Positions 14,550 to 16,865 are shown, numbered from the stretch's first letter. The stretch is 37,268 bases of DNA from Anaerolineae bacterium (GCA_027036755.1 JALWDV010000417.1:1-37268); one strand, 5' to 3'. Notes: generated by a model not told the origin, from the letters alone. A program made the numbers and translations.

Positions 14550-15590
14550 ATGTCTTCATCTTCCATTTCTGTTGCGGTTGTGGGCCTGGGCCATTGGGGC
14601 CCGAACCTGGCCCGCAACTTCAATGCCCTGCCTGACGCCCATCTCCACACCCTATGTGACGCTGATCCCACCCGCCTGCAACGCGTGGGCGCCAACTATC
14701 CCGCCGCCCGCCAGACCTCCGACTTCGAGAGCGTCCTCGCCGACCCCGCCGTGGATGCCGTCGTGCTGGCCACGCCCGTCCACACCCATTTCGAGATGGC
14801 CAGCGTCGCATTGCAGGCAGGCAAACACACGTTCGTGGAGAAGCCCCTGGCCCGCTCCAGCGACGAGGCCCGGCAACTGGTGGCTCTGGCCGACGCTCAG
14901 GGCCTGATCCTGATGGTGGGGCACGTGTTCCTCTACAACGCGGCCGTGCGCCAGGTCAAGCACTACATCGATTCAGGCGAGCTGGGCGACATCTATTACA
15001 TCTATGCCCAGCGCCTCAATTTGGGCATCGTGCGTCAGGATGTGAACGCCCTCTGGAACTTCGCCCCCCACGACATCTCCATTATCAACTACTGGCTGGA
15101 CGGCGCTCCCACCAAGGTGGACGCCCATGGCTACGCCTATCTGCAGCCGGGCATCGAGGATGTGGCGTTCATGAATCTCGAGTACCCCGGCGGGCAGGCC
15201 GCGGGCGTGCACGTGAGCTGGCTGGACCCCAACAAGGTGCGACAGATGACGGTGGTGGGCAGCAAGAAGATGGTCGTCTACGATGATGTCAGCCCGGACG
15301 CAAAAATCAAGCTGTTCGACAAAGGCGTGGATCGCAAACCGGGGCATGGCCTGGGCAGCTACGCCACCTTCGGTGAGTTCCAGCTTTTGCTGCGCGCGGG
15401 CGATCTGCTGGTGCCCAAGATCAAATTTGCCGAGCCCCTGCGGGCCGAATGCCAGGCCTTCGTGGATGCCATCCGCACGGGCCAGCCGCCCCTGGCCGAC
15501 GGGCGCAATGGTCTGGCCGTGGTCGAGGTGCTGGAGGCCGCGGATCGGGCGATGAAGCGAACCGCGGATTTCACAGATGACGCGGATTGA
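14550..15590 (+). CDS. Gfo/Idh/MocA-family sugar-nucleotide dehydrogenase, paralog of 5019-6056
   Basis: MSSSSISVAVVGLGHWGPN Rossmann motif, TFVEKPLA motif and collinear similarity to the 5019-6056 product. ATG 14550 is preferred. The ORF-track extension to 14388 is pyrimidine-rich leader sequence. Confidence 0.8.
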   Translation: MSSSSISVAVVGLGHWGPNLARNFNALPDAHLHTLCDADPTRLQRVGANYPAARQTSDFESVLADPAVDAVVLATPVHTHFEMASVALQAGKHTFVEKPLARSSDEARQLVALADAQGLILMVGHVFLYNAAVRQVKHYIDSGELGDIYYIYAQRLNLGIVRQDVNALWNFAPHDISIINYWLDGAPTKVDAHGYAYLQPGIEDVAFMNLEYPGGQAAGVHVSWLDPNKVRQMTVVGSKKMVVYDDVSPDAKIKLFDKGVDRKPGHGLGSYATFGEFQLLLRAGDLLVPKIKFAEPLRAECQAFVDAIRTGQPPLADGRNGLAVVEVLEAADRAMKRTADFTDDAD

Positions 15591-15634
15591 AAACCAGCCA
15601 CCTCTGACCGAGCATTGAAGGGGCAAAAGCATTG

Positions 15635-15643
15635 TGCTAGAAT
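15635..15643 (+). promoter_or_regulatory. Extended -10 promoter element (TGcTAGAAT) for hicBA-1
   Basis: TGCTAGAAT at 15635-15643. AGGAGG at 15651-15656. ATG at 15663. Confidence 0.4.
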
Positions 15644-15662
15644 CTCCTTCAGGAGGCAGAAG

Positions 15663-15911
15663 ATGTTGACCGAATATCTCGATAAAGCAATGGAACATGC
15701 TCATTACGAACTCATCGAGGACGATGAGCCCTATTATGGAGAGATTCCTGAGTTGCCAGGCGTGTGGGCGACGGGAGAGTCACTTGAGGCCTGTCGTCGT
15801 AATCTTGCCAGTGCACTCGAAGATTGGCTTCTGTTTAGCCTGGCAAAAGGGTTGCCAATTCCTCCTTTGAATGGTCTTGAAATCCGTCCTCCAGAATTGC
15901 TTGCCGCCTGA
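15663..15911 (+). CDS. hicB: HicB-family antitoxin (UPF0150-type, without an obvious DNA-binding domain), copy 1
   Basis: 82 aa. MLTEYLDKAMEHAHYELIEDDEPYYGEIPELPGVWATGESLEACRRNL matches the HicB N-terminal fold signature. A TGATG overlap links it to the downstream hicA. Confidence 0.8.
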   Translation: MLTEYLDKAMEHAHYELIEDDEPYYGEIPELPGVWATGESLEACRRNLASALEDWLLFSLAKGLPIPPLNGLEIRPPELLAA

Positions 15912-16135
15912 TGACGAAGCGCTTGGCGCCTGTTTCCCGTCGGGACTTTATCAAACGCCTGAGAGCGTTGGGTTTTGAAGGGCCTTATGCCGGGGGCAAT
16001 CATGAGTTTATGTTGCGAGGCGATCGTCGTCTGATCTTGCCAAATCCTCATCGCAGCGTCATTGGGGTGAACCTACTTATTCGCCTATTGCGGCAGGCGG
16101 GCGTGTCGCGTGAGGAGTGGTTTTCTATGAAGTGA
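15911..16135 (+). CDS. hicA: HicA-family mRNA-interferase toxin, copy 1
   Basis: 74 aa. The pattern (S/T)xxxFIKRLRALGFEG...GNHEFML...ILPNPH...LLRQAGVS is typical of HicA/YcfA. Confidence 0.85.
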   Translation: MTKRLAPVSRRDFIKRLRALGFEGPYAGGNHEFMLRGDRRLILPNPHRSVIGVNLLIRLLRQAGVSREEWFSMK

Positions 16136-16192
16136 ACTGGAGTCTGGCGAAAACTGTTTTGGCCACTCGAAACGGCCTTTTTCACCAAAGAT

Positions 16193-16260
16193 TGCACGGA
16201 TTTCACAGATTTTTTGTTTGAGTTTTCTCCTTTTTCTGTGAAAATTTGTGGAAATCTGTG
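16193..16260. repeat. Copy of the CACGGAT / TCACAGATTTTTT intergenic repeat family, with internal inverted repeats
   Basis: cggatttcacagat (16197-16210) is identical to 15565-15578. tttcacag (16201-16208) pairs with ctgtgaaa (16236-16243). cacagattt (16204-16212) pairs with aaatctgtg (16252-16260). Confidence 0.6.
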
Positions 16261-16289
16261 GTTAGGATAAAAACGCCTGTGTCCAGCTA

Positions 16290-16298
16290 TGGTATAAT
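16290..16298 (+). promoter_or_regulatory. Extended -10 promoter element (TGGTATAAT) for hicBA-2
   Basis: TGGTATAAT at 16290-16298, 36 nt upstream of ATG 16334. The identical 9-mer recurs at 28346-28354, upstream of the other TA-like cassette. Confidence 0.5.
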
Positions 16299-16333
16299 AT
16301 TAGCACGCATCCACAATCATAAGGAAGCAAATT

Positions 16334-16579
16334 ATGCTTGCAAGCTATCTTGATAGAGCTATGGAACACGCCCGATATGAGATCATTGAGGACGATGGTT
16401 CTTATTGGGGTGAAATCCCCGGCCTCCAGGGCGTCTGGGCGCGACATAAGACGCTGGAAGGGTGTCGTCGAGAGTTACGGGAAGCCTTGAGCGATTGGAT
16501 TGCCCTGCGACTGCGTCTGGGGCTTCCTGTTCCGGTCATCAACGGCATTGACATCAATCGCATCGCTGAATTGACCTGA
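16334..16579 (+). CDS. hicB: HicB-family antitoxin, copy 2
   Basis: 81 aa. MLASYLDRAMEHARYEIIEDDGSYWGEIPGLQGVWA... is roughly half identical to copy 1 by eye. Confidence 0.8.
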   Translation: MLASYLDRAMEHARYEIIEDDGSYWGEIPGLQGVWARHKTLEGCRRELREALSDWIALRLRLGLPVPVINGIDINRIAELT

Positions 16580-16581
16580 AC

Positions 16582-16803
16582 ATGCCCAAATTAACGCCTG
16601 TTTCGCAGAAAGAGTTCGTGAGAAGGTTACGAAAACTGGGATTTGAGGGGCCTTATATGGGCGGCCGCCATCCGCAAATGCGCCGCGGCGATGTAACCGT
16701 GATCATTCCCAATCCCCACGAAGGTGATATCAGCGTAGGTTTTTTGCGACGGCTATTGCGGCAGGCGGGCGTGTCCCGTGAGGAGTGGTTTTCTGTGAAA
16801 TGA
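16582..16803 (+). CDS. hicA: HicA-family mRNA-interferase toxin, copy 2
   Basis: 73 aa. MPKLTPVSQKEFVRRLRKLGFEGPYMGGRHPQM...IIPNPH...LLRQAGVSREEWFSVK. The last 51 nt are almost identical to copy 1. Confidence 0.85.
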   Translation: MPKLTPVSQKEFVRRLRKLGFEGPYMGGRHPQMRRGDVTVIIPNPHEGDISVGFLRRLLRQAGVSREEWFSVK

Positions 16804-16804
16804 A

Positions 16805-16865
16805 ATGGAGCGCAACGGCTTGGCTGTGGTGGAGGTGTTGGAAGGCCGCGGATCGGGCAAAGTAA
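16805..16865 (+). pseudogene. Orphaned 3' end of a Gfo/Idh/MocA dehydrogenase gene (relic of the original tail of the 14550-15590 gene or of an ortholog)
   Basis: 16811-16858 aligns with 15504-15550 (RNGLAVVEVLEAADR). There are 6 substitutions, all synonymous, and one extra base near 16843. Without that base the fragment reads ...EAADRAK-TAA, with the stop at 16863-16865. Confidence 0.75.

Follow-up and report, generated by a model that had tools for sequence, protein, structure and literature searches.

The window analysed here is one strand of a 37,268-nucleotide (nt) stretch from an Anaerolineae bacterium (GCA_027036755.1 JALWDV010000417.1:1-37268), a glycan biosynthesis region with a mosaic base composition as judged by composition profile and Pfam. 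It contains an intact Gfo/Idh/MocA dehydrogenase gene (14550-15590), which is followed by two hicBA toxin–antitoxin (TA) cassettes and then by a truncated copy of the 3' end of the same dehydrogenase gene; such a truncated copy is referred to here as an orphan. Orphans of this gene end are found in at least 10 related loci, and sharp steps in identity between genomes map to a short core within the repeated end. The arrangement has probably arisen by a recombinase-free shuffling of modules, in which host homologous recombination and homology-facilitated illegitimate recombination would act at the repeated dehydrogenase ends. For the source genome the analysis covers these 37 kb; the comparators are all metagenome assemblies, inspected with their short contig flanks. 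The dehydrogenase gene and the features mapped downstream of it, as far as the fnlA-like gene, are on the plus strand.

Local alignment locates the duplicated dehydrogenase end at 15503-15550 and 16810-16858, the second copy directly after the stop codon of hicA-2. The two copies align over 32 nt with 6 mismatches, followed by an extra A in the downstream copy (16842/16843) and then by 16 identical nt, AGGCCGCGGATCGGGC. All 6 substitutions are synonymous, at third codon positions, within the peptide RNGLAVVEVLE; with randomly placed differences the chance of 6/6 falling on third positions is about 4e-4. BLASTN of the dehydrogenase end against the sequence 3' of the gene gives E = 4e-10, and an nhmmer search with a profile of 12 intact ends finds the orphan with E = 6e-9. 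The orphan as a whole (16810-16865, delimited by alignment and profile) ends GGGC-AAAGTAA and reads ...AADRAK* in frame, with its TAA at 16863-16865, 25 nt 5' of the wzx ATG at 16891. An exact 14-mer, CGGATTTCACAGAT, is located in the tail of the intact gene (15565-15578) and again in the spacer between the cassettes (16197-16210). The initial annotation, made from the window alone, had described all of these features, together with the two hicBA pairs and the absence of an integrase or transposase, and the description stands except for the identical run, which had been counted as 15 nt.

The orphan is composed of two parts. Its left 27 nt match the dehydrogenase gene of the related locus L175 and an orphan of L179 (L179_o3) at 26/27 positions, as compared to 22/27 for the window's own gene and only 19/27 for orphan-2 of L004. 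Its right 32 nt, on the other hand, match L004 orphan-2 at 29/32 positions. As the halves have different closest relatives, the orphan is a chimera. The closer match of the left half to L175 than to the adjacent gene supports the earlier suggestion that the synonymous-only divergence points to a diverged functional allele as the source of the orphan.

The dehydrogenase is a sugar (nucleotide) oxidoreductase by its Pfam matches (GFO_IDH_MocA and its C-terminal domains); the top NCBIfam match is UDP-GlcNAc 3-dehydrogenase, under that model's cut-off, and an exact-sequence look-up of the window's dehydrogenase returned no record. Homologues that are 80–91% identical occur in Anaerolineae/Caldilineales metagenome-assembled genomes. 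The gene is located 3' of a Bac_transf gene, a synteny retained in L001-L006, and is the final syntenically conserved gene ahead of a hypervariable glycan region.

Loci of relatives were fetched and searched with a profile of the dehydrogenase end. Orphans were identified in the window, L002, L003/L074, L004 (two), L084, L175 (two), L177 (four), L179 (four), L180/L181 and L187. On the right all of them stop at ...CGGGCGATGA, the point at which the conserved coding sequence of the dehydrogenase ends, and their left ends lie at profile positions 103, 113, 123, 144-158 and ~180. The dehydrogenase gene of L002 is followed by an AbiEii/DUF6036-like gene and a ~80-nt orphan, which continues as a ~270-nt duplicate including the cassette leader; L003/L074 and L084 have the order dehydrogenase, AbiEii-like gene, orphan. 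L004 contains the dehydrogenase, hicB-1, a truncated hicA-1, a UPF0175-DUF3368 pair, orphan-1 with a full hairpin repeat, a sulfotransferase gene, orphan-2 (in frame, ...LEAADRAK*) and the same wzx as the window. In L175 the dehydrogenase precedes a UPF0175-DUF3368 pair, a 102-nt orphan, hicBA and a further orphan, and in L177 it precedes glycosyltransferase genes, wzx, an orphan, a PD-(D/E)XK gene, two orphans, hicBA and an orphan. L179 has a decayed orphan, hicBA, orphan, hicBA, orphan, a DUF433 and a PIN-like gene, orphan and a gmd-like gene (named from sequence). L180/L181 has hicA-1, a PD-(D/E)XK remnant, a mini-remnant (GGGCGATGAA), an AbiEii-like gene, an orphan and hicB. In L187 a DUF3368 pair is followed by a hairpin repeat, a 22-nt remnant of the core and the same wzx island.

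The cargo is thus of five types (hicBA, UPF0175/DUF3368, AbiEii-like, DUF433/PIN and PD-(D/E)XK), nearly all of them TA-type, and varies between genomes. Several loci are arrays in which each cassette is bounded by an orphan, and hicBA units bounded by partial gene-end duplications, which had been anticipated from the window, are present in L175, L177 and L179. L005/L086, L006, L085 and L178 carry no cassette at this site; the next open reading frame (ORF) begins 17 nt past the dehydrogenase stop codon in L005/L086, and an epimerase gene overlaps it in L178. Different cargo without mobility genes at one spot between conserved genes, alongside empty sites, is the pattern that distinguishes TA islets. 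L001 differs in that its hicBA and PD-(D/E)XK remnant are flanked by repeats of the right half of the hairpin, with no dehydrogenase-end copy.

The orphans are of different ages. Orphan-1 of L175 appears fresh, with 6 differences over 83 nt, 5 of them at third positions and none novel as compared to the intact alleles. Many others are decayed, having stop codons, indels and frameshifts, and replacement changes; in these, conservation is higher in the core than in the left part. Several orphans of L179 and L180 share derived changes, for example GCGGGCCGGGCG, which suggests that orphans were propagated or homogenised as repeats and not newly made each time.

At other genes, a hicBA pair in a different glycan cluster from Chloroflexota (L182) lacks a duplicated gene end. 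A TA island of an Anaerolineae genome (L185, 3700-9900) contains HepT/MNT, hicB, DUF2283, two HEPN/NTase pairs, UPF0175-DUF3368 and UPF0150, and its hicB is flanked by 43-nt direct repeats (4664-4706 and 5441-5483) that resemble repetitive extragenic palindromic (REP) sequences, with no gene-end copies. As neither L182 nor L185 has gene-end copies, the dehydrogenase-end arrays look specific to this locus and clade. The close contigs from a metagenome scan with the dehydrogenase protein numbered only three and were short. An 18-mer of the core had 11 matches in viral contigs, none of which extended past the seed under profile scoring, and these were treated as chance.

Comparison of the window with its relatives locates the breakpoints. 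Identity to L004 is ~77% in the Bac_transf gene and 80–86% in the body of the dehydrogenase gene, jumps to 96–100% at ~15541-15556 and holds at that level as far as 16003, over the tail, hicB-1 and the 5' portion of hicA-1. It is 98.9% from 16823 to 20433, where the fetched L004 locus ends. With L084, the dehydrogenase gene is 97–100% identical over 14950-15556, apart from a divergent patch at 15150-15250; a further breakpoint lies within the gene body at ~14950, and the similarity ends after ~15556, as L084 carries its AbiEii-like cassette there. With L187, 16843-23577 (6.7 kb) is 87.5% identical. The unit at the end of the intact gene occupies 15503-15556 (RNGLAVVEVLEAADRAM), and the steps against L084 and L004 mark its 3' core, GCGGATCGGGCGATGA, as the recombination breakpoint; in both copies of the unit the sharp steps map to this core. 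In order, the window consists of an L084-like 3' half of the dehydrogenase gene, an L004-like tail with hicBA-1, an L001-like hicBA-2, the chimeric orphan and an L004-like wzx island.

Junctions on either side of the repeat are shared separately. The junction from cargo into the left of the orphan, hicA followed by TGATGGACCAG(G/C)GCAACGG, is common to L175 and L179, and the junction from the right of the orphan into the downstream module, GGGCAAAGTAATATC-wzx, is common to the window and L004. Since the junctions on both sides are inherited as units, the crossovers fall inside the orphan. The wzx island is preceded by a dehydrogenase-end remnant in all three genomes that have it (window, L004 and L187), with different cargo upstream in each. 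The identity steps and the chimeric repeats fit homologous recombination in the flanks. The difference between L004 and the window is a replacement with one illegitimate joint, in hicA-1 at 16003, and one homologous joint, in the orphan core. On the alignment, this pair of joints has the signature of homology-facilitated illegitimate recombination, a process reportedly set out by de Vries and Wackernagel in 2002.

The cassettes themselves show the same mosaic. hicBA-1 (15663-16135) comprises hicB-1 (15663-15911) and hicA-1 (15911-16135), and the stop codon of the former overlaps the start codon of the latter. A promoter-like site (TTGAAG, 17 nt, TAGAAT, with an upstream TG) at 15615-15643 was located by consensus scan and is a pattern match only. 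hicBA-2 (16290-16803) has an extended -10 element, TGGTATAAT, at 16290-16298, followed by hicB-2 (16334-16579) and, 2 nt further, hicA-2 (16582-16803). A terminator-like hairpin (16154-16175, terminator scan) is located between the two, just upstream of a REP-like hairpin. The 1.2 kb between the dehydrogenase-end repeats contains hicB, hicA, hicB and hicA only. Both HicB proteins match the UPF0150-like family PF21748 in Pfam (1.3e-32 and 8.4e-31), of the partial RNase-H-like fold, and HicA-1 (74 residues) and HicA-2 (73 residues) match the dsRBD-like HicA_toxin domain PF07927 (4.6e-8 and 2.4e-11), both over the gathering score. The genes are co-oriented with the antitoxin first, and by domain content and linkage both pairs are predicted to be type II HicAB systems. 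The HicB proteins have 81–82 residues, in which only the UPF0150 domain (residues ~4–67) was detected; the remaining ~14 residues are too few for a domain, and a C-terminal DNA-binding domain of the ribbon–helix–helix or helix–turn–helix type was not detectable with Pfam.

hicBA-1 is 96–100% identical to L004 as far as 16003, where another TA cassette truncates the hicA of L004, and its hicA-1 is 99.5% identical to that of L180. hicBA-2 is closest to the L001 cassette (92.7%) and is 87–90% identical to cassettes of L179 and L180, including the promoter. The 3' ends of hicA-1 and hicA-2 (16082-16142 and 16750-16810) share 61 nt at 92% identity, reaching 7 nt beyond the stop codons, whereas the rest of the two genes is far more diverged; 44 nt of the hicA-1 3' end are 100% identical to the otherwise hicA-2-like gene of L001. 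This sharing suggests gene conversion or crossover between paralogous cassettes. PADLOC gave no match for the hicBA or AbiEii-like proteins; the DUF3368 pair alone matches a candidate system, PDC-S70 (UPF0175 and DUF3368 genes at 7472-8210 of L004; 4.7e-47 for the DUF3368 protein). On this match, at least one type of cassette at this site may act in phage defence.

The tail of the dehydrogenase, KRTADFTDDAD*, is encoded by the left half (15557-15595, 39 nt) of a hairpin repeat that resembles REP sequences and miniature inverted-repeat transposable elements and recurs in relatives. TDFTDDxD-type tails correspond to the left arm of this ~80-nt repeat, which is made up of CACGGAT/CACAGAT heptamers. 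The repeat is attached to the dehydrogenase end in L001, L004, L175, L176 and L177 and also to several orphans; in L177 it follows the dehydrogenase gene without an adjacent TA gene. The full-length repeat in L001 folds as a hairpin (z = -2.25), as does the second hairpin of the window, in the inter-cassette spacer (16186-16266; DNA fold z = -2.39), which carries the second copy of CGGATTTCACAGAT. Rfam identified no known RNA family within 15300-17100, the spacer hairpin giving only a spurious sub-threshold hairpin match. Members of the family are located at many module junctions (15557-15595 and 16186-16266 in the window, 9013-9095 in L001, 700-790 in L179, 6820-6900 and 7350-7425 in L177). 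In L001 and L179 the hairpin repeat is bracketed by direct repeats of 9–12 nt, GGGCGATGA(AAG) and GG(A/G)(C/T)GATGA..., and the GGGCGATGA repeats match the extreme end of the dehydrogenase unit. The bracketed repeat looks like an insertion with target-site duplication at this extreme end. In the AbiEii-bearing loci the dehydrogenase tail is KTEKQGMV*, read from the TGGTATAAT promoter of the cassette. With tails encoded by a hairpin arm or by a cassette promoter, the dehydrogenase tails are accidental read-through into neighbouring sequence. Annotators should be aware that repeats can give rise to short fragments of gene ends that are in frame and to unusual C-terminal tails of the TDFTDDxD kind.

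No integrase, transposase or tRNA gene was found in the 37-kb window (all ORFs of at least 150 residues on both strands, Pfam; ARAGORN), and no Phage_integrase, other recombinase, resolvase or transposase is present in the gene calls of the related loci. The dehydrogenase-end unit has no hairpin of its own and folds worse than its shuffled versions (z = +1.77). In this clade (Anaerolineae/Caldilineales), the 3' end of the dehydrogenase gene is the left edge, and the fnlA-like gene the right edge, of the hypervariable glycan region. Small self-sufficient cassettes, almost all TA pairs with promoter-like sites of their own, have accumulated at the left edge, and orphans (the last ~50–100 nt of the dehydrogenase gene) lie between them and ahead of the downstream glycan module. 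We propose that the orphans serve as homology patches, with the REP-like hairpins, which are short, and the conserved 3' end of hicA as lesser joints. At these patches host recombination would combine, exchange, insert and remove modules, drawing on DNA of related strains or species. A cassette located between a dehydrogenase end and an orphan would have two-sided homology to any genome that bears the dehydrogenase gene, regardless of the content downstream; as this homology is portable, the cassette could spread without an integrase. A double crossover, on the left in the dehydrogenase gene and on the right between the orphan and the dehydrogenase end of the recipient, would insert the cassette. 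Each insertion would create or renew an orphan that is part donor and part recipient, which the chimeric orphan of the window fits, and repeated rounds would stack cassettes into arrays. The architecture of repeats, its recurrence, the mosaic of identities and the breakpoints are direct observations; the dependence on host recombination and the direction and order of the events we infer, as we do any benefit of the cassettes such as addiction or stabilisation.

Several observations weigh against this proposal. The homology patches are short: between alleles, the exact match that spans the core has a median length of 12 nt, and it is the longest such match in just 5/53 allele pairs. A simple RecA preference alone does not explain breakpoints at the core, and a channelling of recombination to the longest run of identity was rejected on the same figure. 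Nine of the ~15 orphans start within a 15-nt span (profile positions 144-158), which would also fit a defined recognition site. The shuffling leaves the founding duplication unaccounted for, and a recombinase may be encoded elsewhere in the genome, inspection having extended over 37 kb and short contig flanks.

A site-specific recombinase encoded elsewhere could use the ~50-bp dehydrogenase end as an attachment site and move the cassettes as circles, the gene end corresponding to attI and the orphans to attC. The alternating array of cassette and repeat would be expected from such a system, as would the constant right boundary and the clustering of left boundaries at 144-158. The concentration of breakpoints in a core of ~16 nt also points in this direction, as do the lower divergence of this core relative to the left part in decayed orphans and the presence of longer runs of homology elsewhere in the dehydrogenase gene. 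We nevertheless regard this explanation as unlikely. The searches of the window (both strands) and of related-locus gene calls gave no integrase, resolvase or transposase, the repeat lacks a hairpin, and the cassettes bear promoter-like sites of their own. Left boundaries occur also at 103, 113, 123 and ~180, other junctions use halves of the REP-like repeat or the hicA 3' end, and further breakpoints lie within the gene body. A broader version, to which we attach a similarly low probability, is that the dehydrogenase-end copies are attachment sites of an undescribed cassette system, an integron-like platform on the 3' end of a housekeeping glycan gene. Such a platform may capture, stack and exchange promoter-bearing TA or defence cassettes, either by a recombinase acting in trans or by a recombinase-free cycle. 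In the latter case a cassette may be excised as a circle by repeat-to-repeat recombination and re-inserted by a Campbell-type event into any genome with the dehydrogenase gene.

The initial annotation had interpreted the locus as a single TA-only element of ~1.3 kb, inserted in the last ~20 codons of a dehydrogenase gene that ended ...DRAK* beside wzx and bringing a replacement gene end. This agrees with cargo flanked by a direct repeat of synonymous-only divergence, with the maintenance of an intact reading frame and with the same orphan being in frame in L004 (...LEAADRAK*), but it is improbable on the comparative data. The two cassettes differ in their closest relatives and identity levels: hicBA-1 is 96–100% identical to L004 beside a dehydrogenase body of 80–86%, and hicBA-2 is closest to L001. 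The orphan, itself chimeric, cannot be taken for a former bona fide gene end, as none of the homologues ends in DRAK; 13 intact close homologues and the 17 closest database proteins read ...A[AM]M or ...ADRAM after the core, the intact close homologues continuing from ...DRAM with 0–11 variable residues. With no DRAK* end in homologues and no stop codon at that position in L187, AAAGTAA is the AT-rich left edge of the 36%-GC island, with no demonstrated native gene end. Cassette-free relatives do exist, but the predicted empty site, with wzx immediately after a dehydrogenase gene ending ...DRAK*, was not found. The junction of orphan and wzx is instead located behind unrelated cargo, a sulfotransferase gene in L004 and a DUF3368 TA pair in L187. 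The only other close wzx homologue, P0241 (90% identity), is that of L187, again with a TA pair and a core remnant upstream. As L187 shares the junction at 87.5% identity, the junction is old and predates the present hicBA arrangement. Nor was the tail (RTADFTDDAD) supplied by the cassette; it is half of the generic hairpin repeat, which follows the dehydrogenase gene of L177 with no TA gene.

The orphans might be kept for a role in cis, as an expression or processing signal for the downstream glycan genes. This would concern their retention and not their origin and could hold alongside any of the other models. In three genomes the wzx island has a dehydrogenase-end remnant in front of it, reduced to the 22-nt core in one of them, and in decayed orphans conservation is highest in the core. 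We consider such a role doubtful, since the dehydrogenase-end unit has neither a predicted structure nor an Rfam match and many orphans precede TA cassettes that already have promoter-like sites. Chance or an artefact of assembly is a most improbable source of the similarity. The repeat is short (48 nt), and metagenome assemblies, as all the relatives are, can fuse the strains of a mixture where they have sequence in common; however, both E values are low, all substitutions are on third codon positions, identical junctions are seen in assemblies that are independent and come from different samples and sequence archives, and the left junctions are non-homologous joins beyond what an assembler can invent.

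In architecture, the locus appears closest to the orphan module arrays behind rhs and cdiA genes. In these arrays, for example behind rhs in Salmonella, fragments of the conserved region of the gene head displaced modules and mediate recombination (PMC3967940). As in the arrays of Rhs and contact-dependent inhibition (CDI) systems, a full-length gene is followed by modules each starting with a truncated, 3'-proximal copy of that gene, the shared segment would be the homologous-recombination substrate for module swapping, and the cargo is a toxin with its antidote. The repeat here is, however, only ~50–100 nt, as compared to 522 bp in the Salmonella case (PMC3967940). The orphans have no alternative functional C-terminus, ending 0–12 codons past the core with many frameshifted or stopped, and the main gene, which codes for a sugar oxidoreductase, is unrelated to the cargo of free-standing type II/IV TA operons with promoter-like sites of their own.

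In content and apparent mode of spread, the closest match seems to be the TA islet or minimal mobile element. For TA islets without mobility genes, a spread through homologous recombination in the core genes on either side has been proposed (PMC13617665), and the minimal mobile element concept comes from Neisseria (PMC3787668). The dehydrogenase locus resembles TA islets in its TA-only cargo, the lack of a mobility gene, the varied cargo at the same chromosomal spot and an exchange that would proceed through recombination in the flanks. It differs in that the right flank is a portable duplicate of the left gene end, so that transfer needs no conserved downstream gene, and in that the cassettes accumulate as repeat-separated arrays.

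Chromosomal integrons, including superintegrons with TA cassettes, likewise have a fixed platform, small cassettes, a recurring repeat and frequent TA genes. The locus was rejected as an integron, as no intI is present in the window or the related-locus gene calls, the repeat is a coding fragment without an attC-like dyad and the cassettes have promoter-like sites. Phage 21 and e14 integrate by means of an integrase into the 3' end of E. coli icd and supply a replacement end. As at icd, a duplicated 3' end flanks the insert, the gene is kept intact and the copies differ mainly at synonymous sites. At the dehydrogenase locus, in contrast, no integrase lies between the repeats, the cargo is 0.5–1.3 kb rather than a prophage, the copies are stacked in arrays and partly decayed, and the repeat boundaries vary, only the right one being constant and coinciding with the end of conserved coding sequence. 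An analogy with tRNA-targeting islands, drawn earlier, is likewise unsupported, given the absence of a recombinase from the sequence inspected, the variable left ends and the many decayed orphans. The insertion of e14 in icd is described in a review (PMC6379469). Junction remnants of O-antigen and capsule clusters are comparable in that a variable, mosaic glycan locus with a low-GC island lies between conserved genes; here, in contrast, several remnants of similar length serve repeatedly as joints and are linked to TA cassettes. A limited literature search found no prior description of TA arrays separated by pseudo-3'-ends of an unrelated neighbouring gene.

The locus shows nearly base by base how TA cassettes without a mobility gene can move and stack, a short duplicate of a neighbouring conserved gene end acting as travelling homology on both sides of the cassette. 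The same short repeats mark the seams of surface-glycan module exchange between species that are ~85% identical. If general, this would be a recombinase-free route to integron-like arrays and would explain the frequent TA genes at the edges of variable glycan loci. TA addiction could, we infer, also bias which recombinants survive a glycan switch.

Downstream of the orphan, the low-GC (~36%) glycan island (16866-21578) contains wzx (16891-18231) and three ORFs with no Pfam match. A second low-GC island lies at ~7000-10000 (43–50%), and the background is 58–62% GC. As the 36%-GC island is 98.9% identical to L004 and the flanking genes are 77–86% identical, it was exchanged recently between species. 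The closest homologues of its flippase outside the clade are ~55% identical, the few named ones being from Methylococcales and Pseudomonas. The island is followed by an FnlA/CapE-like dehydratase gene (21581-22618; Pfam Polysacc_synt_2, 2e-100), the conserved right flank of the variable region, which is 91–92% identical to L001 and L005 although the upstream content differs there.

Further repeats and modules were observed away from the array. In L175 (1553-4640) and L178 (4382-7041) the dehydrogenase gene lies directly after a WbpB-like Gfo/Idh/MocA gene and a hexapeptide acetyltransferase gene; in the window (4998-15590) a ~7.9-kb block of wzx, wzy, glycosyltransferase genes and Bac_transf, partly low-GC, separates this pair from the dehydrogenase. 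The left side of the dehydrogenase gene is therefore likewise a module-insertion site. A second simple repeat family (GGCCAGAGG/CCAGAAGG units) occupies 23159-23213, 23577-23620 and 23787-23925, with two in-frame occurrences in the fnlB-like gene and another just past its stop codon. After these repeats, between two glycan genes, is an ORF of 130 residues (23947-24339) similar to the 23S-rRNA-intervening-sequence protein/bAvd (Pfam 1.8e-32), a further small accessory gene with repeat boundaries. A tandem duplication of 596 nt (3691-4284 and 4267-4860, 90% identity) lies inside a 784-residue tetratricopeptide-repeat gene (2683-5037). Finally, a 36-nt direct repeat with 89% identity (28268-28303 and 29167-29202) is located near the 5' ends of two ORFs, one at 28244-28768 with no Pfam match and the other a DegT-type aminotransferase gene.

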